From a virus (taxonomy: Duplodnaviria > Heunggongvirae > Uroviricota > Caudoviricetes): DNA of 64,000 nt. The stretch lies in IMG/VR virus record IMGVR_UViG_2740892441_000001. One strand, given 5' to 3'. The notes under the pieces are model-generated. The model saw only the letters and a list, made by a program, of their open reading frames with translations. It had not been told where the DNA came from and ran no database searches. Every line of letters begins with the position of its first letter. Position 1 is the first letter of the stretch. Positions 4,939-60,845 of the stretch are shown one piece after another. The translations under genes and the position numbers were made by a program.

Positions 4939-5205
4939 TTACATCACCAGTAACTTCGCTTTGGCTCGACCTAAAGTGGTTAACCCAAGAGTCCGGCGGT
5001 GATAGCGATTGTCACTGCGTTGGCGCGTATGCCCTTTCTCCACCAGCCCCTTTTTTATCAGAGCGCGAATTGAGAACTGGATACTTTGCTTTGTTGTCTT
5101 GTACGGCAAAACTTCAAGCAATTCGTCCAGATCAAGTAGATGACCTCGCTCATAACCGAGATTGAGCGTTTTGATGATGTCCTTTTGTTTGTCGGTTAAC
5201 GTCAT
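4939..5205 (-). CDS. Small putative DNA-binding protein (winged-helix-like)
   Basis: 88 aa, basic C-terminus; first gene downstream of the 5215-8112 operon. Confidence 0.45.
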   Translation of the reverse strand: MTLTDKQKDIIKTLNLGYERGHLLDLDELLEVLPYKTTKQSIQFSIRALIKKGLVEKGHTRQRSDNRYHRRTLGLTTLGRAKAKLLVM

Positions 5206-5214
5206 GGCAAATCC

Positions 5215-6105
5215 TTATGCCGGTAAAGCAATTTCTAACGGTTTATCCAAAGGTTGTTTGTCGAATGCCAGCAGTGGCAGCGTGTCAGGCAGTCGACGAC
5301 CAAAGTCAGGGTTTCGATACACACCATACAACGGAGACGTAAAGCTCAGGTTGTGAATGTCCTTGAGCAGCTTCACAATGCTGGCCTCGTCCACCAGACT
5401 GTCGGCAATGTCCTGAATCGTCGTGCCACGATTCCGCCCAGCTTTTGCCAGGGAACTGTTCTTGTGGTAGTCCGCCACCAGATCACGCAGTGCACGGCGA
5501 CGACGTGACTCGCTCATTGCGAACAACTCTTTGACGATCGCCTCGTTATCACCCGGGTCGGAGCGGAAATGGCGCTGGAACACACGCAGTGCACTTTCAT
5601 AGCTCTTCGGTCGCTCAGGGCGGATGAACTTGAACCCTGCTTTCATGGCGAAGGGATTGTATTTGCTCATCGAGGATTGGATCTCAATGATTGGCCGGTC
5701 ATGCATCCTGCTAACCAGGTTAATCATTCGATAAGAGACGCCTACGCCACGGTACTGAGTATCCACAACTGAGCGGCTGATCACCGCAAAGTTGTTATTC
5801 ACGTACCGGCCCCAGTACTGGTTAGCCACGGTGGTATTGGTGGTTGGTTTCAACTTAGGAAACATGCGATGGCGAGGTGCCAGCAGAAGTTTCGGGTAAG
5901 CCATAACCACGACGCCCACCAGACGGTCATCCAGTTCGCAGCGATAGTATGTTGGCGCGAAAGGTTTGCCGTCTGTTTTGTAGTGAAGCGACTTAAGAGC
6001 GTGCCAGTCCTCTACAGTTCCCTTTGTGACAGTCATTCGCTCCAGAAAGTCCAGATGACGCGGAAACTCTTCAGGGCGGTAGCGTTTAATGATGATGTCC
6101 GTCAT
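5215..6105 (-). CDS. Hypothetical protein (possible acyltransferase-like fold)
   Basis: 296 aa; stop/start overlap with upstream ATPase gene implies operon; weak GNAT-like segment RCELDDRLVGVVVMAYP. Confidence 0.5.
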   Translation of the reverse strand: MTDIIIKRYRPEEFPRHLDFLERMTVTKGTVEDWHALKSLHYKTDGKPFAPTYYRCELDDRLVGVVVMAYPKLLLAPRHRMFPKLKPTTNTTVANQYWGRYVNNNFAVISRSVVDTQYRGVGVSYRMINLVSRMHDRPIIEIQSSMSKYNPFAMKAGFKFIRPERPKSYESALRVFQRHFRSDPGDNEAIVKELFAMSESRRRRALRDLVADYHKNSSLAKAGRNRGTTIQDIADSLVDEASIVKLLKDIHNLSFTSPLYGVYRNPDFGRRLPDTLPLLAFDKQPLDKPLEIALPA

Positions 6106-6767
6106 GAATGGACCTCATCATAACTACCATTGTGATATTCCACCTTCACGCGTTCTTTGTAGTGCTTGGTGATCTGCATATCCGGGCGCAGCGCGTTCTT
6201 CAGGTCTTCGTGAGTCGTCGCCACCATTACCGTCGCACCAACCTTTCGAGCGGCACGCTGGAGGTTAGATGCCACAACCTGAGCGGTTACACGGTCTAGA
6301 ACAGCACCGAACTCGTCAGCAGCCCACACTTTAGCGCCTGACTCAATCAGTTTGGCAATCTTGAGACGATATTTCTGACCGTCTGACATTTCAGAAGGCT
6401 TGCGAACAAACAGATATGCATCGTTCAGACCTGCCATAGATAACAACCCAAGCGCATCACTGGTAGTTTTGCCCAGTTGGTCAATGACGTTAACCTCATT
6501 ATCGAAGGTAAAGTCATCAATAGAAGCTACAGAAAGCCCTTCATCCTTCATCTGGCGTTGCAACTCGCGCAACACAACGGATTTACCTGAACCGGATTGG
6601 CCGGTGATGTACACCACATCGCCCTGCTTCACTTCCAGCTCCAGATTGTCGTAAAGCGTCCACTCTTTTTCGTCCAGGCCAAGCCCGAACGACTCAGCGA
6701 TTTCCAACGTGCGCGTGGTTTTATTTACGCGTGTCTGAAACGATACGTTGATGATGTATTTGCTCAT
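6102..6767 (-). CDS. ABC-type ATPase domain protein (soluble)
   Basis: Walker A GQSGSGKS, ABC-signature-like MSDGQKYRL, Walker B VWAADEFGAVLD, H-loop-like ATTHED. Confidence 0.65.
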   Translation of the reverse strand: MSKYIINVSFQTRVNKTTRTLEIAESFGLGLDEKEWTLYDNLELEVKQGDVVYITGQSGSGKSVVLRELQRQMKDEGLSVASIDDFTFDNEVNVIDQLGKTTSDALGLLSMAGLNDAYLFVRKPSEMSDGQKYRLKIAKLIESGAKVWAADEFGAVLDRVTAQVVASNLQRAARKVGATVMVATTHEDLKNALRPDMQITKHYKERVKVEYHNGSYDEVHS

Positions 6768-7432
6768 GCAGCCATCTCCCCGGAAGAGATCTTCTCCGCA
6801 TATGCCACAAATGCGTCTACCCCGCTTTCTCCCGTCATTTCTTCCATGTGGGCAAGCAAATCACCAACAACAATGGCAGAGCCAGCAGGGAGCGTTTTAA
6901 AGCCCAATACGTCGATAACACGTACTTCTTCCGCTGCAACTTCACGACTGATCTCGGTGTGTTCATCCTTCTGTCGTTTAGTTTCTTCGCCCAGATCGAT
7001 AACTAGCGAGTCGGTGTCCATTTCTTCTGTCATGCTGCCAACGAGAACATTCAACTCCCGCTCTTCAAAGCCGAAAACCTCGATATCGTCCAGAACAAGC
7101 GACTCAAGTTCTTTCTGTAGCTTAATTGCATCGTAATCAATGCTGGCAAGTCGGTTATCTTCAAGGCGCTTCGCACGAACCTCGTCATCACTGAGATCAT
7201 CGCGAACAATAACCGGTACGCGCTCAAGTCCAGCAAAAATTGCAGCCTCACGGCGGCCGTGGCCAGTAATAATTACGTCGTTCTTATCGACCGTAATTGG
7301 CTGGTCAAATCCGCGCTTTTTAATGGCTGCGGCCAGATCTCGGATCTGCTGTTCATCATGCTTTTTGGCATTCATCTCATAGGGAATAAGATCTGCCGGG
7401 TCGCGATATACGATTTCAAACTTTTTGGTCAT
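6764..7432 (-). CDS. ParB-like nuclease domain protein
   Basis: ParB N-terminal-like motif ITGHGRREAA...VPVIV; start set at MTKKFEIVY (ATG overlapping upstream stop). Confidence 0.6.
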   Translation of the reverse strand: MTKKFEIVYRDPADLIPYEMNAKKHDEQQIRDLAAAIKKRGFDQPITVDKNDVIITGHGRREAAIFAGLERVPVIVRDDLSDDEVRAKRLEDNRLASIDYDAIKLQKELESLVLDDIEVFGFEERELNVLVGSMTEEMDTDSLVIDLGEETKRQKDEHTEISREVAAEEVRVIDVLGFKTLPAGSAIVVGDLLAHMEEMTGESGVDAFVAYAEKISSGEMAA

Positions 7433-8112
7433 TACATACACTCCTTGTAGTAGTCGACCAGCCACACCAGAGCCTCACCAGCGTTCTCCATTTCATTACC
7501 GGTGTTAATAGCCTGCTCTTTGATGATGTTTTTTATGGTTTCTGCAACACGATCTGACGCATCGAAAGTTACTTTGAAGCGCATGGTCTGATGTTCCGCA
7601 CCCACACGTTCGGTTTTCTCTCGTTTGTCGGTATCGACAGGCTCATCACTACCACGAGACAACGCCTCCAGTGCTTCAAGGTCGATTGCCGCCTCTTTTG
7701 CTAAAACCATCGAGATTTCGTCGTCATACGGGGCGATTTCAGACAGTTGATAGTCAAGTTCTGACTGAATTTCTTCAATGAAGCGTTGCAATGCGATTTG
7801 GTCGTCTTCACCGTATCGCTCGTTGTCCACTAGTGACATCTGTTTAGCTACGACATCGCTAATTTTGCCCACAGAAAGCACCGGAACCGTTGAAATTCCT
7901 TGCTCAATAGCAGCACGCCAGCGATGTTCGCCGCCGAGGATTTCAAAAAATCCATCTTCAAGTTCACGAGCCAAAATTGGCTTAAAAAAGCCCAATTTTT
8001 CGATAGAACCTTTCAGTTTTTCAAAATTCTGCGCACCAACCGAATTGGTGTTCCAGGTATTCGGGCGAAGGTTGGCAACATCAACCTGCAAAATCGTGAT
8101 TTTTACATCCAT
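7432..8112 (-). CDS. ParB-like nuclease domain protein
   Basis: ParB/Srx signature FEILGGEHRWRAAIEQGISTVPV; first gene of the operon, divergent from helicase gene. Confidence 0.65.
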   Translation of the reverse strand: MDVKITILQVDVANLRPNTWNTNSVGAQNFEKLKGSIEKLGFFKPILARELEDGFFEILGGEHRWRAAIEQGISTVPVLSVGKISDVVAKQMSLVDNERYGEDDQIALQRFIEEIQSELDYQLSEIAPYDDEISMVLAKEAAIDLEALEALSRGSDEPVDTDKREKTERVGAEHQTMRFKVTFDASDRVAETIKNIIKEQAINTGNEMENAGEALVWLVDYYKECM

Positions 8113-8194
8113 TTTATTGCTACAATCAACTAAGTAATTACTTACTTATTATAATAGCCAAATAACATACAAAAGGCACTAAGGAAAGAGGTTT

Positions 8195-9754
8195 ATGACT
8201 GTTCGGATTGTATCTAACGCAGTAAATGCGCTTATTTCTGGCGCAGATGACAAGGTAAAGCAACTGGTGCAACAGATGTTGAGCTACGAAGTCGAGACTG
8301 GCGACTGGAAAGGCACAAGCACGATGTTCAACTGGAGTAAAAACTCGTTCCCTGCTGGCTTTGCCAAGCCTGTAGCGGCGAACTTGAACAAGGCGGGCAT
8401 CAAATGTGTTCATATCCGCAAAGACAAAGCCCCGGCGCTTGGAAAGCCAAATCCGGCGGTTAACCCATTCCCATACAATCCTGATTATGCGTATCAGGAT
8501 CAGACTGTGGAAACGCTAGTTCGCGAGGGAATGATGATTGCGCAGATCGCTACTGGTGGCGGAAAATCTAATGTTGCCTGCAAAGCAGCTGCACGTATCG
8601 GTCGAATGACATTATTTTTAACAACCCGCTCTGTTCTGATGTTTCAGATGGCCGAAAACTTCCAGAGATCCATCGACTACCGCGCCGAAAATGGCGAACC
8701 GTGGTTAAAAGACCAAAAGGTTGGAGTAATTGGCTCGGGTGAGTTCCAGGTATCGCGACATATCAACGTTGCTACAGTTCAAACTCTTGCAAGTTTCCTC
8801 GAAGAACCACCACGCGATGCAACACCAGATAAGAAAAGCTACCACCTCAAACGTCGGGAGTTGGTGAAACGCTTCCTTTCAAGTGTCTCTCTTCTTATTC
8901 TGGAAGAGGCGCATGAGTCTTCAGGCTCTAATTTCTATGACATTGCCAGATTATGTGCGAACGCAGACTATCGCCTGGCGCTTACGGCAACGCCGTTCAT
9001 GAAGGATTCTACGGAAGCCAACATGCGTCTGATGGCTGTGGCCGGGCGAATTGAAATAAAAGTCACGGAAAAGTACCTGATTGATAAAGGCATTCTGGCA
9101 AAGCCATACTTCCTTTATCATAAAGTTGCCTACAAACCGGACGAGGTCAGAATCAAGGCAGAACTTGCTAACAAACACCTCAATTTTAGAGTAGGTATGA
9201 GCACTGCCTACCAAAAGGCTTATCAGTTGGGGATCGTGTATAATTTGGGACGTAACGAGGCCATTGTGCGCGAAGCATTGCTCTATAAGCAACACTCTCT
9301 CAACTGCATGACTCTGGTTCGTCTTAAACGCCACGGGCAAATCCTGATGGAGATGATGAAGGAGTCCGGTCTTAGAGTTGACTTCATCTATGGGGAATCG
9401 AACCAGGCGACAAGGCAAGCAAAGCTGAACAGTTTAGCGTCTGGTGAAATAGATGTTTTAATAGGCTCGACTATTCTGGATGTCGGTGTTGATGTGCCAA
9501 GCGTTGGTGCGGTCATTCTTGCTGGTGGCGGGAAAGCAGAAGTTGAAATGAGACAACGTGTCGGTCGTGGCTTACGAGCCAAGAAGAATCAGGCAAACGT
9601 GTGTTTTATCACTGATTTCATTGACATTAGCAACAAATACCTGTTGTCTCACTCTTATGAGCGAAAACACATCATCGACACTACACCTGGCTTTGCAGAA
9701 GGTGTATTGCCTATTGATGGCGCATTCGATTTTGGAGTTCTGAAACGAGATTAG
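8195..9754 (+). CDS. Superfamily-2 DEAD/DEAH-box helicase
   Basis: Motif I IATGGGKSN, motif II ILEEAHE, motif III LALTATP, motif VI RQRVGRGLRA; RBS AAGGAAAGAGG. Confidence 0.8.
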   Translation: MTVRIVSNAVNALISGADDKVKQLVQQMLSYEVETGDWKGTSTMFNWSKNSFPAGFAKPVAANLNKAGIKCVHIRKDKAPALGKPNPAVNPFPYNPDYAYQDQTVETLVREGMMIAQIATGGGKSNVACKAAARIGRMTLFLTTRSVLMFQMAENFQRSIDYRAENGEPWLKDQKVGVIGSGEFQVSRHINVATVQTLASFLEEPPRDATPDKKSYHLKRRELVKRFLSSVSLLILEEAHESSGSNFYDIARLCANADYRLALTATPFMKDSTEANMRLMAVAGRIEIKVTEKYLIDKGILAKPYFLYHKVAYKPDEVRIKAELANKHLNFRVGMSTAYQKAYQLGIVYNLGRNEAIVREALLYKQHSLNCMTLVRLKRHGQILMEMMKESGLRVDFIYGESNQATRQAKLNSLASGEIDVLIGSTILDVGVDVPSVGAVILAGGGKAEVEMRQRVGRGLRAKKNQANVCFITDFIDISNKYLLSHSYERKHIIDTTPGFAEGVLPIDGAFDFGVLKRD

Positions 9755-9756
9755 TT

Positions 9757-10035
9757 ATGAGCGAAAAGAAAACAACTTATTGTCAGGTAGCATTGACTGA
9801 TAAGGCCAATGACAAACTGGGAAAATTTCAAATGAAACTAAAAGAAAAAAACATCAAAATGTCCAAGGCTGAAGTTATCAATACCATTCTGGAGACGATG
9901 ACGATGGCTGAATTTGACAAGGTTTCATCTGCCGTTGGCGTCTCTGCTAAGGCTCGTGAAAAAATCATGCGCATCTATGAGAACTCTAATATGACAAAGG
10001 AAGACCTAGAACAAATTCTAAGCAAACTGCCATAA
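9757..10035 (+). CDS. Hypothetical small protein, coupled to helicase
   Basis: 92 aa ORF starting 2 nt after helicase stop. Confidence 0.5.
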   Translation: MSEKKTTYCQVALTDKANDKLGKFQMKLKEKNIKMSKAEVINTILETMTMAEFDKVSSAVGVSAKAREKIMRIYENSNMTKEDLEQILSKLP

Positions 10036-10177
10036 CATTTCACATTCCCTCCATCCGCCAATTCCAAGATGTGCTTACTTGTAAAAGGAGCACATCAATT
10101 GATGTGGCAGAGAATGAATTTAATCAAGACAAACATTGAATGATTAATAGACTACGATAGTGTCCAACAGGGCATTC

Positions 10178-10200
10178 TCATGTGACATTTGTCACATTTT
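10178..10200 (+). terminator. Rho-independent terminator-like hairpin (CATGTGACA..TGTCACATTTTT)
   Basis: Perfect inverted repeat followed by T-run, downstream of 9757-10035. Confidence 0.5.
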
Positions 10201-10287
10201 TAACCGCATAAGTCTCCGGCTGAAAAAAGTTCTTGATTGGCTGAATGATATTTGTAGGCTTATCAATGTTTAGAGCCGGAGGTGTGA

Positions 10288-10830
10288 ATGGGTGTACTTG
10301 ACATTGATAGTAATTACTTAAGTGCAAGGCGAATAAAGGAATGTGTTCATATCTATTGTAAATCAAAGCAGTCTTGTTTAGAAAAGCAGGCGTACCTAAC
10401 ATCTTCTCAAAAAGGAGAGCACAAACTCATCAAATATAAACTAAAGGCTTCGCGCAAAGATCGTTATGAGCACTATATATATGTAAAGGATATTGAAGGC
10501 ACCAAGACAAATTGCGGTATTATCTTTTATCCCTATGATATATCAAGACTGTTCTCCATTATGAAATCCTGTGTCGGCGTAGCTCCAGGTAAATTAGAGT
10601 TGCATTCAAACTTATACGATTACCCAAATGCTCAAAAACAGATAAACGATAGCACTTCGCCCTATGGATTTTCGTTTCTCTTTAAGAATCATCTCGCATT
10701 GAAAGATTTCATCGAAAAATACAATGAAGGAATAATATCAGGCGAATTAAATTTCAACAAAATCTGCGGAGATATAAAAAGGGACGACCTCTTAATAGAT
10801 ATTTACAATAGAATCCAAGTTAACGTGTAA
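10288..10830 (+). CDS. Hypothetical protein (low-GC accessory gene)
   Basis: 180 aa ORF, AT-rich codon usage distinct from neighbours. Confidence 0.5.
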   Translation: MGVLDIDSNYLSARRIKECVHIYCKSKQSCLEKQAYLTSSQKGEHKLIKYKLKASRKDRYEHYIYVKDIEGTKTNCGIIFYPYDISRLFSIMKSCVGVAPGKLELHSNLYDYPNAQKQINDSTSPYGFSFLFKNHLALKDFIEKYNEGIISGELNFNKICGDIKRDDLLIDIYNRIQVNV

Positions 10831-10857
10831 CCATCCATTAATCATAGCCAGACAAAT

Positions 10858-11277
10858 ATGAAAGTAACAAACCTAATTATTCTGACACTAGCCACATCAC
10901 TAATTGGGTGTTCATCTTCATCTATATCTGTTTCAAAGGCAAAGTATGCGCCTCAAAGCAGAATATTTAAATATCAAACACCACATGAGTCTAGTCTAAC
11001 AATAGTTAGAGACAAAGGGCTGGTTGGTTCTGGATGTAACGCTTCCATATTCATCAATGGAGAAACGGCAGCAAAATTGGAACCTGGTGAAAAAGCAACT
11101 TTCTATCTTAATGAAGGAGATTGGATCGTTGGGACATCAATTGAAAGTTCAGGTCTTTGCGCATTTAACCCCTCTAGGATGGAGCGAGAAATAAAACTAA
11201 AGCAAGGCGACGCGAAAACATATCGGGTTTTCACTACCTGGGATGGTACAATGGATATATTGCCAACCACTTTATAA
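10858..11277 (+). CDS. Putative lipoprotein
   Basis: N-terminal signal peptide MKVTNLIILTLATSLIGCSSS with lipobox LIGC. Confidence 0.6.
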   Translation: MKVTNLIILTLATSLIGCSSSSISVSKAKYAPQSRIFKYQTPHESSLTIVRDKGLVGSGCNASIFINGETAAKLEPGEKATFYLNEGDWIVGTSIESSGLCAFNPSRMEREIKLKQGDAKTYRVFTTWDGTMDILPTTL

Positions 11278-11806
11278 TGATATGACGACGAAAGACATCA
11301 CCTACGGTGTGCCAGCAGAAGTCTGGCCTCGAGATTACACTAACGTTGAAAAACTACTGATGTTCTGGCGCAGAGAACAAATTCCTGTAAGGGCCACTCT
11401 AGAAGATGGCCAGGCGTTTTGCATGTACGTTTATGGCCTCATGCCATCTCGTAACAAAGTTGACCTTTGCCCAGCCCCTTTTGACAAAGAAAATCGTATA
11501 AGGCTCCCACTTGAACGCATTAGTACAATTGAATCAGGTGTGGTTGACAGTATCGCTCACGATTTCAAAGGTCGATTAACAGTTCACCCTGATTATGTCG
11601 ATAATCGGCCATCACGCCGCGATTTTTTTGCTATTTGCAACCAAGCCTATAAAGCAAACAAATCTATAAGGGTGTACATGGCGGATGGCCGTGAAATTGA
11701 GGGGGTGTCAGCAGGCGCAGATGCTTGTCAGGTTACACTACGTGTCGAGAACGGTAGAAAAATAGTTATTTTGTTCGATTGGGTTGAACGAATTTTGCCT
11801 TTTTGA
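11243..11806 (+). CDS. Hypothetical protein
   Basis: 187 aa ORF; true start may be the internal Met at ~11281. Confidence 0.45.
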   Translation: MVQWIYCQPLYNDMTTKDITYGVPAEVWPRDYTNVEKLLMFWRREQIPVRATLEDGQAFCMYVYGLMPSRNKVDLCPAPFDKENRIRLPLERISTIESGVVDSIAHDFKGRLTVHPDYVDNRPSRRDFFAICNQAYKANKSIRVYMADGREIEGVSAGADACQVTLRVENGRKIVILFDWVERILPF

Positions 11807-11809
11807 GTT

Positions 11810-12118
11810 ATGAAATCGATATTGTTACCACCATTATTTTTACTTTGCTCAGTTGCAGCAAATGCAATGGACTATAAGCCTGTCATTCAGTCGCTGATGA
11901 ATGACGTGTGCTCAACGTCTCAGAATGTATCAGTTTGCATGTATCAATTTTCGGCAGCCGTAAAAGCAGGAAAAGCGATAGGTGAGAATGTGGAACTGTG
12001 TAAGAAAGTGGCAAATGAAGAACGAGCAATGTTGGATTGCGAATCTAGCGAGTCATCGGCACAGTTCGTTGATGCGCTATTTGACACCAATCGTAAGGCT
12101 GTAGAGTCTGTCCAATAA
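11810..12118 (+). CDS. Small secreted protein
   Basis: Signal peptide MKSILLPPLFLLCSVAANA; 102 aa. Confidence 0.55.
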   Translation: MKSILLPPLFLLCSVAANAMDYKPVIQSLMNDVCSTSQNVSVCMYQFSAAVKAGKAIGENVELCKKVANEERAMLDCESSESSAQFVDALFDTNRKAVESVQ

Positions 12119-12337
12119 ATCTATAAGGTTAATAACCGGCTAAGTCCGGTTATTATTTTTCACATCACTTCTTTATATCTATAAATCAAACAACCTAAAT
12201 ATATAAGGTCGAAAGCCGGAATCGATTATTTATTTAGGGAACACCTTCGACGATCTCGCTTTTATTTCTAGGACTTTCATCCCTGCAAAAAAATTTAAAA
12301 AAACACTTGCAATCTTTTTTCGCGTATCGATAATTGA

Positions 12338-12399
12338 ACTCGTCGAAAGCGAAGATGCTAACGACAATAAATTTTAAATTTACATAAGGAAAAATTATC
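12338..12399 (+). promoter_or_regulatory. Sigma70-like promoter (TTGCAA - 17 nt - GATAAT) for 12400-13050
   Basis: Hexamers read directly upstream of RBS AAGGAAAAA. Confidence 0.5.
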
Positions 12400-13050
12400 A
12401 TGGCTAACATTATCATTTCTAAAAAATCCATCATTGAAGCTGCTTCCATTGTATCCGACGAGCTGCGCGAAAAAGCAGATCTGGCAACTCAAACATATAA
12501 CGAACATTATAAAAATGGTACGCACACTAAAGCAGACAAAGCAAATATGCAAGCTGCGACCACTAAACTTGCTTACTTCATCAACAACGTTGTAAACGCT
12601 GTTGAAGACGAAAAATTATGCTCTGTTTTCTACTATGCGATTAAAGCAAGCAAACAAGCGCCAGAAGTATTTTTCCGTGATGCAATGACTAATAGTTATT
12701 CACTGGAAAAACTGGTTTATCTGGTTAAATCTATTAAAGCTGGTAAATGCGTTTATTCCGTCGCTGATATGTCAGGATCTCGTGTATTCGCTTTAATCGA
12801 TATGATTAACGACGAGATCGACACGTTCACCAATGGCGCTGTTTTCGATTTAATGAATGAAGCTAAAAAAGCGTGTGAGATTAAATTGGACGCTGGCTAT
12901 ACTCAAGCCAACCAGTTGATCAATCTTTGCGAACGTCTCGGACTTGTTGAAAAAGTCAAAGGAGCTGGGAGCGCAAAAGCTGGTACTCAGCAATATCGCT
13001 TTATCAAGAATGATTTCTACAATTATCTAGCTGATGCTTTCAAAGCGTAA
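12400..13050 (+). CDS. Hypothetical protein
   Basis: 216 aa ORF with good RBS and own promoter; hairpin GCGCCCACTATGGGCGC at 13064-13080 downstream. Confidence 0.6.
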   Translation: MANIIISKKSIIEAASIVSDELREKADLATQTYNEHYKNGTHTKADKANMQAATTKLAYFINNVVNAVEDEKLCSVFYYAIKASKQAPEVFFRDAMTNSYSLEKLVYLVKSIKAGKCVYSVADMSGSRVFALIDMINDEIDTFTNGAVFDLMNEAKKACEIKLDAGYTQANQLINLCERLGLVEKVKGAGSAKAGTQQYRFIKNDFYNYLADAFKA

Positions 13051-13097
13051 TTAATGGAATCAAGCGCCCACTATGGGCGCTTTAAAGGAGCTTTAAA

Positions 13098-13301
13098 ATG
13101 GTCAGCTATGACAAGATCCGCGCGGAATATCGCGCAAAGTATCGCGCTTACAAACTGGAATTAATCGATGATTTGATCGCGCAACGCGACCAATTAAATT
13201 TTACGTTTTCTGATTTGCTTAACAGCAAGCGAGATTGCAAGCGCAAACGTGAATATTTACGTTTAAGCGCATTAATCGGAAAACTTCAAAATTCTATTTA
13301 A
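13098..13301 (+). CDS. Hypothetical small protein
   Basis: 67 aa, RBS AAAGGAG upstream. Confidence 0.5.
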   Translation: MVSYDKIRAEYRAKYRAYKLELIDDLIAQRDQLNFTFSDLLNSKRDCKRKREYLRLSALIGKLQNSI

Positions 13302-13321
13302 TTTTTTTAAGGAGCTTAATC

Positions 13322-13549
13322 ATGTTTGTTCTTATCGCTGGCGTTAACGTCCACAATGAATATTGTGTTAATGATATTGCTGGGATCGCTGGTTACGCTG
13401 GATCTGTTGAGCTTATAGATGAAACGACGCGCAAAATTGACTTATTGAGCGACCAGGAGCGAAAAAAAGCAGACGTGAACGACGCTGATATATTTTTAAT
13501 GTTAAAAGCGTTTGTAGAAATGGGATTTGAAATCAGTTTACATAAATAA
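13322..13549 (+). CDS. Hypothetical small protein
   Basis: 75 aa, RBS AAGGAG upstream. Confidence 0.5.
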   Translation: MFVLIAGVNVHNEYCVNDIAGIAGYAGSVELIDETTRKIDLLSDQERKKADVNDADIFLMLKAFVEMGFEISLHK

Positions 13550-13553
13550 AATC

Positions 13554-13578
13554 GAGCGCCCACTATGGGCGCTTTTTT
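13554..13578 (+). terminator. Rho-independent terminator (GAGCGCCCACTATGGGCGC + TTTTTT)
   Basis: GC-rich hairpin followed by T6; same stem as hairpin at 13064-13080. Confidence 0.8.
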
Positions 13579-13601
13579 CGTTTCCAATACTCCCACCATA
13601 A

Positions 13602-13628
13602 CGCGCCATCATTGGCGCGTTTTTTATT
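13602..13628 (+). terminator. Second tandem rho-independent terminator (CGCGCCATCATTGGCGCG + TTTTTTATT)
   Basis: Hairpin plus T-run read directly. Confidence 0.75.
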
Positions 13629-14029
13629 GTCTTTAACTCACTCCAACAACATAAAAATAAGCGCCAAAATAACGCCATAGACGCGATTTTATATCCTCGC
13701 CAGTACATACCCATTACTTAACACATTAACGCGCTTAAAACGCGTTATATTGCGCTATAGAGTATGGTTAATCGTTGGCTTTTAGTCTTGCTTTATGATC
13801 CGCGTTTATTTGTCGGCGCGGATCGGCATTTTGTTTTGTTCCGTATCCGCTCGCGTATTATGTGCGCGTGATTTTTCACATAATCACACCACTTAATCAC
13901 GTATGTGATTATGCTACGAAAGAAATCTGGATGTCTCAGGCGACGAAAGTCATCATAATTTTCCCCGCTCACCTGTCCGACAACCGCTGGTTGGATTCAA
14001 CCAGCTTCCCGATGTTTTTTCTATATAAA

Positions 14030-18866: not shown

Positions 18867-19436
18867 TTAGTTGTTCAGATAAACATTTGGAACACGGACG
18901 TAGAAGTTCCTGTCACCGGTAAGTTCCAGAGTAATGTTAATGTCATTACCATTGTCTAGTGTAGCCGTTGCTCTATAGAACTTATCCGTCACCTTGTCCT
19001 CTATTGTCACCTTCATACATTTTGGTGCAGTCGAACCGTTATTCTCTTTCAGAATAGTTGTCACGAGAGGGCAGGCTGCTTCTTCAAGAGCAACCTCGTC
19101 CTTGTGTGGGATGCCGATGAAGATAATCCAAGCCAGCGACGCAACGATTATGATAAATGGCACTCTGCTGCCTTTTGTAATAGTCGCGCGCTTCCAGAGA
19201 TAGACAGGCAGGAGGAATACCCCCCATAGAATTGAAGGTGGTTCACAGCCAGACTCCGATAGAGCCATTCTGTCAGCTACTAACAAACCGATGGTAGTTA
19301 CACCCCCAATTATAATAGCGTAATTGGTATACTCTTCCGGCAATACTCCAAAGAAGAAAGGCATGAACGCTAGAATCCACGCATAAATGTTATTCAGAGG
19401 TTTTGTTTGTTGGTTCTGGGTTTCCATCACATCCAT
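18867..19436 (-). CDS. Putative membrane protein
   Basis: 189 aa with several hydrophobic helices (e.g. IYAWILAFMPFFFGVL, FIIIVASLAWIIFIGI). Confidence 0.5.
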   Translation of the reverse strand: MDVMETQNQQTKPLNNIYAWILAFMPFFFGVLPEEYTNYAIIIGGVTTIGLLVADRMALSESGCEPPSILWGVFLLPVYLWKRATITKGSRVPFIIIVASLAWIIFIGIPHKDEVALEEAACPLVTTILKENNGSTAPKCMKVTIEDKVTDKFYRATATLDNGNDINITLELTGDRNFYVRVPNVYLNN

Positions 19437-19588
19437 TCCATCACATAAAAATCGCTTTTATATATTATCAATTTTCTCACTTGTATAACCTAAATACGCA
19501 TCCGTTTATCAATCCACCTTCCACAAACATCAGCTTTGGCTATGAAAAATGACAATCTCAAAGTGAAACCATTATCATAGGATAACGA

Positions 19589-19774
19589 TTAGATGAGATG
19601 GTCTAATTCATCATCTATCATCGCTTTAACACTTGAGTCATTAACCCCGTATTGATTTATGAGCCGTTTCAGCTCCGGTGAAAACTGAAGGTAGATATCG
19701 TGGGCGTTTTTCACTGTAGGTTCAACGCCACGCATTTCAAGCGCCTTTAGTAGATATGAGTCTTCTTTAAGCAT
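19589..19774 (-). CDS. Hypothetical small protein
   Basis: 61 aa ORF in operon with 19811-20119. Confidence 0.4.
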   Translation of the reverse strand: MLKEDSYLLKALEMRGVEPTVKNAHDIYLQFSPELKRLINQYGVNDSSVKAMIDDELDHLI

Positions 19775-19810
19775 AAATTCTCCGTTATCTAGTATGAAGC
19801 GATTGCCGGA

Positions 19811-20119
19811 TTACCATTGCCAGCACTCAAGCCCTTCAACGACCGGTGCGCCACAATCAAAATGTACAGAGTCAAAGCCTACATCAAGTACTTTCTGAAT
19901 GTTCGCAATCGCGCCCTCGGATATACCATATCGACGCAACTCATCTTTCCAGTCATCGTCCTGTAACCCGGCGTGGACAATGCAACCGTACTCAATTTGT
20001 GAAACCCAATCCAGCTCATTGCTTGCGATCATGAATCGGCGAGCATCTTCCTCTGATGTATGAGATGAGCTGATCAATGCCACCTGGTAGGCTTGGGTAA
20101 TGTTCAACATTTCAACCAC
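19811..20119 (-). CDS. Hypothetical protein
   Basis: 102 aa; tandem conserved promoter elements at 20120-20195 upstream. Confidence 0.5.
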   Translation of the reverse strand: MVEMLNITQAYQVALISSSHTSEEDARRFMIASNELDWVSQIEYGCIVHAGLQDDDWKDELRRYGISEGAIANIQKVLDVGFDSVHFDCGAPVVEGLECWQW

Positions 20120-20271
20120 TCCGAAACAATTTGTTTTCTTATGTGGCTTATTATCTCAATCAACAAAAGGCAGAAAACAAATTGTTTTAGGGTTTGTTAA
20201 AGTCAGAAGGGATTGTGTCTATATGAAAATGCCCAGCGTATTGCCGGGCATTGTGAAGAATGGTTGCTTAA

Positions 20272-22305
20272 TTACTTAACCTGGTGGCCAGGTTTAGCAC
20301 CAGCATCCGGGCTTAACAGGAAGATGTCTTTCCCGCCGGGGCCAGCAGCCATCACCATGCCTTCGGAGATACCGAAACGCATTTTACGCGGAGCCAGGTT
20401 AGCCACCATAATGGTGTGACGGCCAATCAGTGCCTGTGGGTCTGGATAAGCGGAACGGATGCCTGAGAAGACATTGCGTTTTTCACCGCCGAGATCCAGC
20501 GTCAGGCGCAGCAGTTTGTCAGAACCTTCAACAAAGTCTGCGTTTTCGATCAGCGCCACGCGCAGGTCAACTTTGGCAAAGTCGTCAAAGGTGATGGTTT
20601 CCTGAATCGGGTCGTCTGCCAGCGGGCCAGTAACTGGCGCGGCAGTAGCTTTCACTTCTTCTTTAGACGCTTCCACCAATGCTTCCACCTGTTTCATGTC
20701 GATACGGTTATACAGTGCTTTGAACGGATTCACTTTATGGCCCAGCAGCGGTTGCTGGATACCATCCCAGGTCAGTTCTGTATTCAGGAATGCTTCTGCA
20801 CGTTCAGTCAGTTTCGGCAGTACCGGCTTCAGGTACGTCATCAGCACGCGGAACAGGTTAATGCCCATAGAGCAAATCGCCTGCAGATCGGCATCGCGTC
20901 CTTCCTGCTTCGCCACCACCCACGGAGCCTGTTCATCGACATAGCGGTTAGCCAGGTCAGCCAATGCCATGATTTCACGGATAGCTTTACCAAATTCGCG
21001 GCTTTCCCATGCTTCGCCAATCACTTCAGCGGCATCAGTAAAGGTTTTGTACAGTTGCGAGTCAGCCAGTTCGCTTGCCAGCACGCCGTCAAAACGCTTG
21101 TTGATAAAGCCTGCATTACGGGAGGCCAGGTTAACCACTTTGTTCACGATATCGGCATTCACGCGCTGAACGAAATCCTCCAGGTTGAGATCGATATCAT
21201 CAATGCGCGAAGAGAGTTTCGCAGTGTAGTAGTAACGCAGGCTGTCGGCGTCAAAATGATTCATCCAGGTGCTGGCTTTAATAAAGGTGCCGCGAGACTT
21301 GGACATCTTCGCGCCGTTCACCGTCACATAGCCGTGAACAAACAGGTTGGTCGGCTTGCGGAAGTTGCTGCCTTCCAGCATGGCAGGCCAGAACAGGCTG
21401 TGGAAGTAAACGATATCTTTACCGATGAAGTGGTACAGCTCGGCGGTGGAGTCTTTCTTCCAGTATTCATCGAAGCTGGTAGTGTCGCCGCGCTTGTCGC
21501 ACAGATTCTTGAAGGAACCCATGTAGCCAATCGGTGCGTCCAGCCAGACGTAGAAATATTTACCCGGCGCGTTCGGAATTTCAAAACCGAAGTAAGGTGC
21601 GTCGCGGGAGATATCCCACTGTTGCAGACCAGATTCAAACCACTCCTGCATTTTGTTTGCCACCTGCTCCTGCAACGCACCGCTGCGGGTCCATGCCTGC
21701 AACATTTCGCTGAAAGAGGGCAGATCAAAGAAGAAGTGTTCAGAATCACGCATTACCGGCGTAGCGCCAGAAACTACCGATTTCGGCTCAATCAGTTCAG
21801 TCGGGCTGTAGGTCGCGCCGCAAACTTCACAGTTATCGCCGTATTGATCTGGCGCTTTACATTTCGGACAGGTGCCTTTCACAAAACGATCCGGCAGGAA
21901 CATGCCTTTTTCCGGGTCGTACAACTGAGAGATAGTGCGGTTTTTAATAAAACCGTTCTCTTTCAGGCGAGTATAGATAAGCTCAGACAGCTGGCGGTTC
22001 TCTTCGCTGTGCGTCGAGTGATAGTTGTCATAGCTGATGTTAAAGCCTGCGAAATCAGTCTGGTGTTCCTGGCTCATTTCGCCAATCATCTGTTCCGGTG
22101 TGATACCAAGCTGCTGTGCTTTCAGCATGATCGGCGTACCGTGGGCATCGTCGGCGCAGATGAAGTTGACCTCGTGGCCGCGCATTCGCTGGTAACGGAC
22201 CCAGACATCAGCCTGGATGTGCTCCAGCATATGGCCGAGGTGGATTGAGCCGTTAGCGTACGGCAGCGCGCACGTCACCAGAATTTTCTTCGCGACTTGG
22301 GTCAT
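20272..22305 (-). CDS. metG: Methionine--tRNA ligase (methionyl-tRNA synthetase), enterobacterial type
   Basis: 677 aa from [26 protein letters not shown]... with HIGH (HLGH) and KMSKS motifs; recalled as near-identical to E. coli MetG; start reassigned to 22305. Confidence 0.97.
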
Positions 22306-58505: not shown

Positions 58506-60845
58506 TTAATCTTCTAGTTCTTCTGTTGGTGATGTCTTCTCTCGTCGGTCATCTATCGCCTGTAACGCAGCAATGATTTCAGCCAGTGGCTTCTCCCGAT
58601 ACATCTCGACGATCTGCGATTTGGTGTATTTCTTGTCACCAATTTCAACTCTCCCGCTGGCGTTCTTTGGCAGGTATCCTTCTTCCAGCATGTACTCGAC
58701 GAGCGATTCGATAACGTCGAGGCCACGAGTAGGATCGAAGTAGAATTTCCAGGTGCATTTGCCATACGGTGGTGCAACTTTGTTTTTGATGCACTCTGCG
58801 CCTACGTCCTGACCGATCTTCTCTTTCCCATCCTTCATCACCGATGCACCGAGACGGATGCGCACAGAAGCGTAAAACTTCGGTGAATCGCCGCCTGGAG
58901 ACGTAGTAGGGTCGCCAAACATTACACCGATTTTTGTGCGAACCTGATTCAAGAAGATGATGCAGGCGTTGTATTTGCGTGCCCACAAAGCCAGAGTAGG
59001 GAAGTTCGCACTCGTCGCACGCGCCAGTGCCGTATTGTCGTTCATGTTTAGCTGATCTTTGTCTTTGGCTGTGCCTTCAGCCATCTTTTCGAACTTCTCG
59101 GCTTTGGAGTTCGGAACCATAGACGCAAGAGAGTCAGCCACGATACAGATAGGTGCTGATTCGGGGATAAGCTCTTCATCACGAACCAATTTAAGTATTG
59201 TGCCGATCAACTCTACAGAGTCTTCGAAGGTATCTGGCTGCTTGTATACCCACTGACCGTCATCCTCATCTGCATTCAAACCATTGGCTACAGCCAGGCC
59301 AACGTCAAAACTGTTTTCATGATCGAGGAATACCGCCAGACCATCTTGTTTTTGAGCGGAGATCATCGCTGCTGTTGCAAGGAATGTGTTGTGGCTGATA
59401 ATCCCGTTAGACCAGAAAGAGTGTGTTTCCGGCATCGCTACGTCGAACGTTGGTGCTTCACCTTCCTCAATAGCCACGACTTCGTCGTAGAACAAGTTAG
59501 AGCCAATTACCGCTGCCAGTTGTGCAAACAGATGCTCGTTAAAACGATTCTTTCTGCCAATGAAGGAGACATAGATTTCTCGCAGTTTGTCTATTCCGAC
59601 ACGATCGCCGCGGCCAATAACGTGGTCTACCAGAGCGTAGTCTTCACGGGTGGTCTTGGTGAGCGACTCGTAGAGTGATTTCACTAAGCCGCTGATGTGC
59701 GGAACATAGCCTGAGTAAGTGCGGTCAAAACCAATGTCCCGTTTGGTTGCCACTGATAAACGTGCCGGAGATTCGAAACCAATCGTTGACAGAAAAAGGT
59801 CGTAATTAGAGCCACTGAATGACAGCCGGTAATATGTATTTTCATAACCCGCGACGTGTTTTTCAGAGATAGTTGACGTAATCCCCAGATTCAGGAGCAT
59901 GAGGCGAATTTGCTGTAGCAGCAGCCCACTCGCGCTCACAACCTCAATGCAGCGACCATCATTGACGTGGCATTCCAGCTCAAAGTAGCCGCGAAGGAAT
60001 GCAATTTGAGCCTCGCTATTGGCGCGACGCACACTCAACGGAACCTGCTTGCCAGCAGCTTTCTCATACTCCAGACCATATTCTTTAAAAAGCAGCGAAC
60101 GCACCTCTTTGCTAAACAGCACATGGTCTTCCGAGCCGTTATGTTTTCTCGTAACTGGCATCTTGTCTGATACCAGCGAAATGAGGCGGTAGTACTCATC
60201 CTTGATGAAAGGATCTGTGTTAGAAAAATTCACTGAATTTTCAGAGGCCACGTATCCGTCAGCAATTAAATAGCCCATCAGTTTTGCGATATTGGCATCC
60301 AGGTGCTGATCGCCGAATTGATGTGTGCCAACCATTGAAGGAATCGTGTCGCCTACACTGATTTTTTCAGCATGTCGCCAGACGACATTACCTAAGTCGT
60401 CAACCACACGGATTGGGTGACGGAACGTAGCCTCGATATAACCGCCTGATGCCAGCTTAATACGCTTGAATTTGCGACGGTTGTTCCATGTCAGGTGTGA
60501 GGTCTTCTCTATCACGCCATTTTCATTGATGAGTCCAACGTTATGCTCTACATCGCGAGTAGTGCATGTCGCTTTGTACCCTTCAATCTCAAACAACTCT
60601 TTCACTGTTACCATTCCACGCTCCGTCAGCAGCATGGTGTCTGCGGTAACACATTTCCCCGCACTTGGAGGACCGAATACTTCGACGATACGACCACATG
60701 GGAAACCGCCATCGTAACGACCGGAAATCGCTTTGTTTAACGGAGGAAAGCCTGTGTCAATCCAATGAGTTACTTTCTGAATTTCGTCGTTGCTACCGAT
60801 TTTCTTTTTCAGAGCAAGTGCCAGTGCGGATTTTCCTTTTGCCAT
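58506..60845 (-). CDS. RecA/UvsX-like recombinase containing an intein in the Walker A P-loop
   Basis: 779 aa; extein reads FGPPSAGK | C...(422 aa)...SHN | TFLATAAM; removing residues 65-486 leaves ~357 aa, RecA-sized. Confidence 0.88.
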   Translation of the reverse strand: MAKGKSALALALKKKIGSNDEIQKVTHWIDTGFPPLNKAISGRYDGGFPCGRIVEVFGPPSAGKCVTADTMLLTERGMVTVKELFEIEGYKATCTTRDVEHNVGLINENGVIEKTSHLTWNNRRKFKRIKLASGGYIEATFRHPIRVVDDLGNVVWRHAEKISVGDTIPSMVGTHQFGDQHLDANIAKLMGYLIADGYVASENSVNFSNTDPFIKDEYYRLISLVSDKMPVTRKHNGSEDHVLFSKEVRSLLFKEYGLEYEKAAGKQVPLSVRRANSEAQIAFLRGYFELECHVNDGRCIEVVSASGLLLQQIRLMLLNLGITSTISEKHVAGYENTYYRLSFSGSNYDLFLSTIGFESPARLSVATKRDIGFDRTYSGYVPHISGLVKSLYESLTKTTREDYALVDHVIGRGDRVGIDKLREIYVSFIGRKNRFNEHLFAQLAAVIGSNLFYDEVVAIEEGEAPTFDVAMPETHSFWSNGIISHNTFLATAAMISAQKQDGLAVFLDHENSFDVGLAVANGLNADEDDGQWVYKQPDTFEDSVELIGTILKLVRDEELIPESAPICIVADSLASMVPNSKAEKFEKMAEGTAKDKDQLNMNDNTALARATSANFPTLALWARKYNACIIFLNQVRTKIGVMFGDPTTSPGGDSPKFYASVRIRLGASVMKDGKEKIGQDVGAECIKNKVAPPYGKCTWKFYFDPTRGLDVIESLVEYMLEEGYLPKNASGRVEIGDKKYTKSQIVEMYREKPLAEIIAALQAIDDRREKTSPTEELED
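59388..60653 (-). mobile_element. Intein (422 aa) with LAGLIDADG homing-endonuclease domain inside the recombinase gene
   Basis: N-terminal Cys after GPPSAGK, C-terminal His-Asn followed by Thr; LAGLIDADG-type motifs LMGYLIADGYV and IAFLRGYFELE. Confidence 0.8.

Follow-up and report, generated by a model that had tools for sequence, protein, structure and literature searches.

Described helicases of the UvsW type

The UvsW helicase of phage T4 and the D10 helicase of phage T5 are branch-migration and fork-remodelling enzymes of recombination-dependent replication and repair (PMC5180179; PMC7824862). UvsW (503 aa; PDB 2OCA) joins a junction-binding N-terminal domain (PF21241) to an SF2 core of two RecA-like lobes, and its gene is directly followed by that of a small helical protein, UvsW.1, which has been proposed in the literature to be a DNA-binding partner of UvsW (PMC7824862). 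D10 catalyses branch migration, and its closest characterised homologs are UvsW and the XPB helicase of Archaeoglobus (PMC5180179). In archaeal XPB the N-terminal domain is one for damage recognition, and the helicase gene likewise has a partner-encoding neighbour, the partner in this case being the nuclease Bax1.

We compared these systems with a pair of adjacent genes, for a helicase and a small protein, at positions 8195-10035 of a 64,000-nucleotide stretch of DNA (hereafter the window). The comparison leads us to propose, with a probability of about 0.7, that the helicase is a recombination/repair helicase of an SSU5-like phage-plasmid and that a small, probably DNA-binding partner is encoded after it.

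The gene pair and its host element

The pair consists of two plus-strand ORFs, the first coding for the 519-aa helicase (8195-9754) and the second for a protein of 92 aa (9757-10035; PHROG 1466). The junction reads TAG-TT-ATG, leaving a gap of 2 nt between the helicase stop and the start of the small ORF, so that the tight coupling described in the first-pass annotation of the locus is confirmed at the level of the coordinates. Before the helicase ATG there is a good match to a Shine-Dalgarno sequence, AAGGAAAGAGG (8181-8191, plus strand), which is kept in relatives. Further upstream (8140-8155, plus strand) lies a promoter-like element made up of a perfect -10 hexamer, TATAAT (8150-8155), and a preceding ACTTACTTA motif, with no good -35 box. 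The ACTTACTTA motif is kept upstream of the helicase in relatives from Salmonella, Yersinia, Klebsiella, Xenorhabdus and Morganella and does not recur significantly in the rest of the window, and judging from its sequence the element may act as the promoter of the pair.

Two readings of upstream sequences were examined and rejected. The conserved motif ACTTACTTAnTATAAT, considered as a repeated element-specific promoter, shows no significant excess over shuffles, the window containing one exact site and four with 3 mismatches, a result equalled in 2 of 100 shuffles. The 12-bp palindrome AAGTAATTACTT of the intergenic region, considered as an operator, is not kept in SSU5, nor in further relatives.

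Over the 7.3 kb that surround the gene pair, the sequence is 100% identical to the Escherichia coli plasmid pEC00678_4 (109 kb). It has counterparts in 785 plasmid records, for the most part non-mobilizable ones of Klebsiella, Escherichia, Enterobacter, Yersinia and Salmonella, and in phage SSU5 and further SSU5-like phages. On the strength of these nucleotide matches we assign the window to a phage-plasmid of the SSU5/pHCM2 type, a well-described supergroup (PMC7969092). Within it the helicase and the small gene form a core pair that is kept in hundreds of SSU5-type elements and in distant relatives. The ortholog in the record of phage Cyrano already bears the name "UvsW helicase", and among the matches listed most plasmid records label the protein merely "DEAD/DEAH box helicase".

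A UvsW-family helicase

The initial call of an SF2 helicase is supported by Pfam, which places ResIII/DEAD at residues 99-270 and Helicase_C at residues 364-462, both above the cut-off, and by membership in PHROG 16 ("DNA helicase", E 2.6e-93). The two RecA-like lobes that make up the motor follow an N-terminal domain and carry motif I (ATGGGKS, residues 119-125), motif II (EEAH, residues 237-240; window 8903-8914, plus strand), motif III (TATP, residues 264-267) and motif VI (QRVGRGLR, residues 454-461). The residues GGGKS, EEAH, TATP and QRxGRxxR are invariant across 54 homologs, and the ATPase/helicase motifs (I, II, III, V and VI) are intact. Motif II of most SF2 enzymes is DExH/D and begins with an aspartate, as in the DECH of T4 UvsW; the EEAH form, equally invariant in the 54 homologs, has a glutamate in place of this Walker B aspartate.

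The first-pass annotation saw no recognisable accessory domain in the protein. This stands for a direct Pfam scan only, in which residues 1-102 gave no match to UvsW_N and the first 98 residues were left without an assignment; it does not stand once profiles and structures are compared, since these show the first ~95 residues (nt 8195-8479, plus strand) to be of the UvsW_N type. Full-length homologs about 50% identical to the window helicase (P0063, P0068 and P0094) pass the gathering score of Pfam UvsW_N (PF21241). A profile of the 54 sequences aligns with T4 UvsW at an hhalign probability of 99.6% (E 1.9e-24), and the alignment runs colinearly from residues 15-491 of the helicase against 15-485 of UvsW, taking in the N-terminal-domain loop with the invariant W38 and G40. 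The UvsW_N feature is thus recovered from the family profile and the homologs, and the single sequence by itself does not reveal it. We attribute the missing direct Pfam match to the Arg/aromatic loop of this domain, which is shorter in the window helicase than in T4 UvsW.

The AF2 model agrees with this assignment: it has a mean pLDDT of 91.3 and a mixed alpha/beta N-terminal domain predicted with high confidence, and its best Foldseek match in the PDB is 2OCA, i.e., T4 UvsW itself (E 5e-23), with archaeal and eukaryotic XPB entries close behind (E 1.2e-22). A plain PDB sequence search had XPB, Rad25 and UvsW as its best matches. By profile comparison and by model, then, the 519-aa protein is a UvsW-family SF2 DNA helicase over its whole length, close to the 503 aa of T4 UvsW in size and alike in architecture, with pairwise identity of only ~17-24%. 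Archaeal XPB comes second by sequence and fold, and it too has a partner-encoding neighbour; its damage-recognition N-terminal domain differs from the UvsW_N type found here. T5 D10 can be placed in the same SF2 clade and has a similar proposed role; this placement follows from the description in PMC5180179, where UvsW and Archaeoglobus XPB are its closest characterised homologs and branch migration is its activity. The genomic context of D10 differs from that of the window helicase, and a ribbon-helix-helix-like (RHH-like) partner has not been described for it.

Recombination context and proposed role

Searches with SSU5 proteins (tblastn) showed that the window encodes a RecA/UvsX-like recombinase, an SSB, an exonuclease, a Mre11/Rad50-like pair, an RNase H and RepA; elsewhere on the same plasmid there is a DnaB-like helicase that has a primase homolog, a ligase and DnaE as its neighbours, in agreement with the SSU5 annotation. 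The T4 genome shares with the window a RecA-type recombinase, an SSB and a Mre11/Rad50-like nuclease, although the hosts of the two helicases are unlike, a temperate siphovirus-type phage-plasmid in our case and a virulent myovirus in that of T4. Because a separate DnaB-like helicase is present, together with genes for the RecA/UvsX-like recombinase, SSB and Mre11/Rad50-like nuclease, we favor a role in branch migration and fork remodelling. SSU5-type phage-plasmids therewith carry a T4-like recombination toolkit, comprising a UvsW-type helicase, a RecA/UvsX-type recombinase, an SSB and a Mre11/Rad50-like nuclease.

By analogy with T4 UvsW and T5 D10, the helicase most likely binds branched DNA such as forks, D-loops, R-loops and Holliday junctions, and most likely powers branch migration and fork regression with ATP. 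In such a scheme the UvsW-type N-terminal domain would be the junction-binding part and the two-lobed part the ATPase motor; the enzyme would support recombination-dependent replication and repair alongside the element's own recombinase, SSB, exonuclease and Mre11/Rad50-like nuclease, and replicative unwinding would be left to the separate DnaB-like helicase. The small gene would be translated from the helicase mRNA, starting 2 nt past the helicase stop, and its product would serve either as a DNA-binding cofactor of the helicase or as a regulator of the divergent promoter region. This proposal would give a concrete role to a gene present in plasmids of E. coli, Klebsiella, Salmonella and Yersinia, hosts that are all of clinical importance.

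The recombinase itself is encoded in a single 779-aa ORF (58506-60845, minus strand) that contains an intein of ~421 aa (about 59391-60653) inside the Walker A loop (GPPSAGK/C...SHN/T), with the LAGLIDADG-type motif LIADGY. In SSU5 the ortholog has 358 aa and lacks an intein.

The small partner protein

The small ORF is a real gene: it is under purifying selection, with a dN/dS of 0.064 against phage Cyrano. Its place directly after the helicase gene is the same in elements from Salmonella, Yersinia, Kluyvera, Klebsiella, Xenorhabdus, Morganella and Photobacterium. Compared with SSU5 it has a pN of 0.25 and a pS of 0.84; since the pN of the helicase in the same comparison is 0.048, the small gene evolves faster than its neighbour. 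Its family, PHROG 1466, is listed as "function unknown", and direct scans of the protein with Pfam, NCBIfam and PADLOC yielded nothing meaningful, the best being a match to SRP_SPB (E 0.008) below the cut-off.

Beyond these genera, the ORFs that come after the helicase gene in more remote elements (those of Magnetospirillum, Sphingomonas, Novosphingobium, Acinetobacter and others) align with the small protein at an hhalign probability of 94% (E 1.4e-7), a score weakened by the fact that this group of ORFs was picked by eye. A profile search independent of that group recovers the same distant proteins with E-values from 1e-10 to 1e-18. Reciprocal look-ups placed all three distant members examined immediately downstream of a helicase, two with a 4-nt overlap; the helicase call at the third locus is split in two. 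An exhaustive search for the small protein returned 81 representatives only, nearly all of 90-105 aa and matching from end to end. As far as these comparisons reach, the small protein belongs to a compact family dedicated to the helicase, which it accompanies across the Alpha-, Beta- and Gammaproteobacteria.

We consider it fairly likely that this family is of the ribbon-helix-helix (RHH) type, a prediction that is weak and yet consistent. The RHH-like half would span residues ~6-47 and be followed by a two-helix C-terminal tail. In the AF2 model of the monomer, residues 1-14 form an extended segment and residues 15-30 and 37-47 form helices; the strand of an RHH fold pairs only in the dimer. 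Comparisons with the RHH proteins CopG, the NikR N-terminal domain and F-plasmid TraM all gave marginal scores, no RHH family of Pfam matches the protein, and a Foldseek search of the PDB with its model returned no significant match. The family also stands apart from CopG, the NikR domain and TraM as a separate, compact group that is always helicase-linked. The product is most likely a dimeric RHH DNA-binding protein with a helical C-terminal tail, and as such would dimerise and bind operator DNA. This would be a first, tentative fold assignment for PHROG 1466, as a helicase-linked RHH-like protein.

The small gene occupies the same genomic slot as that of T4 UvsW.1, in that a small helical protein is encoded directly after a UvsW-type helicase in both. 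UvsW.1 is, however, described as trihelical with an acidic tail and has no RHH-type strand. Homology between the two was rejected, given an hhalign probability of 0.1% and no UvsW.1 match in the PDB sequence search, and the arrangement in T4 is a positional parallel only. A pair of the XPB-Bax1 type was likewise rejected: unlike the nuclease Bax1, the downstream 92-aa helical protein has no nuclease domain or features in the Pfam scan or the AF2 model.

Two variations were noted at this position. In a Morganella psychrotolerans locus (L092, 6686-6941) the small gene appears to be frameshifted into pieces of 49 and 75 aa, both of which fit the family profile, so that one has to do either with a pseudogene or with an error in the sequence. 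At five alphaproteobacterial loci (L102, L107, L113, L116 and L121) another small ORF, 58-76 aa long, comes after the helicase and overlaps it by 4 nt at the last three. Its product opens with a conserved "DPIHFF", contains a leucine-zipper-like coiled coil and shows no relationship to the RHH-like family. The place of a small partner after the helicase is retained, with a change of occupant.

Defence and replicative alternatives

The first-pass annotation suggested that the pair might be a replication helicase or a two-gene defence or anti-defence module. What we find instead is homology to a phage recombination helicase, T4 UvsW, combined with conserved synteny, and neither suggestion is upheld. 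As a defence module, the helicase would be the sensor or effector and the small protein its regulator or inhibitor. PADLOC does give partial matches of the helicase core to PbeA (E 2e-23), to a type IV restriction helicase (mREase_IV) and to DpdF, and NCBIfam matches the core to its "dnd restriction" model; these hits, however, are limited to the generic helicase core and lie far under the curated cut-offs (60.8 vs 600 bits for NCBIfam), and the small protein has no PADLOC match at all. The pair does border a variable, low-GC cargo region, but it belongs to the conserved core and is not itself a variable cargo locus. One SSU5-like Klebsiella plasmid lowers foreign DNA uptake, an effect observed for the plasmid as a whole (PMC8969562). 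The search for a nuclease or sensor domain that the first-pass annotation had suggested turned up neither in the Pfam scan nor in the AF2 model of the helicase, and the full-length match is to a recombination helicase. The defence reading is therefore largely refuted and in our judgement very improbable, and the UvsW assignment strikes a candidate defence module off the list. The idea of a Dnd- or Dpd-type DNA-modification cluster, prompted by the ParB-like and ABC-like genes nearby and by the weak matches to DpdF and the dnd-restriction model, was set aside, as these matches are to the generic helicase core only; no enzyme of the DndC or DpdA type was named when the genes around the pair were scanned with Pfam, PHROG and NCBIfam.

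That the protein is instead the element's replicative helicase, with the small protein as a loader or origin-binding factor, might be supposed because it is encoded on a self-replicating element and because the small protein may bind DNA. The same plasmid, like SSU5, nevertheless has its DnaB-like replicative helicase beside the primase homolog, as well as DnaE and a ligase, and RepA is encoded elsewhere in the window. By Pfam, moreover, the window helicase is of the SF2 type and not a hexameric enzyme of the DnaB/RecA fold, and no UvsW/XPB-type SF2 enzyme is known to act as a ring-shaped replicative helicase. We accordingly give this alternative next to no credence and retain the assignment to recombination and repair.

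A conserved block with a divergent ParB/ABC operon

The first-pass annotation also described the pair as divergent from a ParB-like operon, and this proved correct. At a distance of 82 bp begins a minus-strand operon of five genes (4939-8112), which is kept along with the helicase pair. Its first two genes encode ParB_N proteins, a ParB_N protein proper (7432-8112) and a ParB/Srx protein (6764-7432). These are followed on the same strand by an ABC-type ATPase (6102-6767), a PHROG 886 protein (5215-6105), annotated in phage Cyrano as a relative of an ABC ATPase/acetyltransferase fusion (MK0520), and, last, a winged-helix-like small protein of PHROG 900 (4939-5205). The operon leads on to the genes for terminase, portal and capsid and is distinct from the ParA-type partition locus of the element.

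In nearly all of the 39 genome loci with enough flanking sequence, the five genes adjoin the helicase in the same order and orientation. This synteny holds down to 39% helicase identity and across the Alpha-, Beta- and Gammaproteobacteria, and searches that started independently from the small protein led to loci with the same block. One may ask whether the helicase and its RHH-like partner are two components of an undescribed seven-gene DNA-handling system, together with the ParB-ParB-ABC ATPase-PHROG 886-PHROG 900 operon, which would head the packaging/morphogenesis operon. Such a system might process or condense DNA before packaging, act in a partition-like manner, or modify or protect DNA. 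In favor of this are the constancy of the block, the 82-bp control region that both transcription units have in common, and its position directly upstream of the terminase and head genes. On the other side, all elements with the block belong to one broad lineage of ~100-kb phage-plasmids in which genome order is generally conserved (PMC7969092), and for that reason the synteny may just as well mean descent within one old lineage and not function. Furthermore, the UvsW-family helicases of T4 and T5 operate without ParB/ABC partners, and no known system of this composition emerged from PADLOC, NCBIfam or the literature. Neither this helicase, nor an RHH protein that partners UvsW, nor any combination of ParB, ABC ATPase, acetyltransferase and helicase in one system came up in the literature searches. 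We regard the seven-gene system as a rather unlikely option; if it were true, the RHH protein would confer site specificity on the helicase or control the 82-bp divergent promoter region.

Irrespective of its interpretation, the presence of the block in three proteobacterial classes makes it a target for studies of replication, the lytic switch and packaging. The new points that emerge from this locus are modest, namely a partner family that is linked to the helicase and probably of the RHH type, and the deep conservation of a block of seven genes; the rest is ordinary.

Downstream hairpins and the cargo border

A strong terminator had been placed after the small gene, but a consensus scan found no plus-strand terminator after 10035. 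Folding instead points to two hairpins on this strand. The first, at 10068-10096, is stable (12 bp, -14.8 kcal/mol), is not followed by a U-tract and overlaps the palindrome CACATCAATTGATGTG (10091-10106); it is a candidate terminator or a candidate protein-binding site. The second, a weak terminator-like hairpin (10180-10201), has a 7-bp stem, ATGTGAC-ATTT-GTCACAT (10180-10197; -8.1 kcal/mol), followed by TTTT, and is too weak to pass the cut-off used in the consensus scan.

DNA homology with phage Cyrano stops at ~10097, and that with relatives breaks at about 10097-10264, i.e., at these hairpins and palindromes; the GC content is ~39% at about 10100-14000, compared with ~47% elsewhere. Given this break in homology and the fall in GC, the gene pair lies where the conserved core gives way to a variable cargo region. 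From the small ORF on, the segment at about 10100-14000 is a cargo hotspot in which a PHROG 31250 protein, a lipoprotein and a FljA-like gene vary among relatives. The last of these (11243-11806, plus strand) matches Pfam Flag1_repress, a repressor of phase-1 flagellin, with an E-value of 1e-83, and is also found in SSU5.

By the RefSeq annotation of the identical plasmid (NZ_OP378623.1, 75607-77640), the window further contains a full-length gene for methionine--tRNA ligase (metG) at about 19313-21346 on the minus strand.
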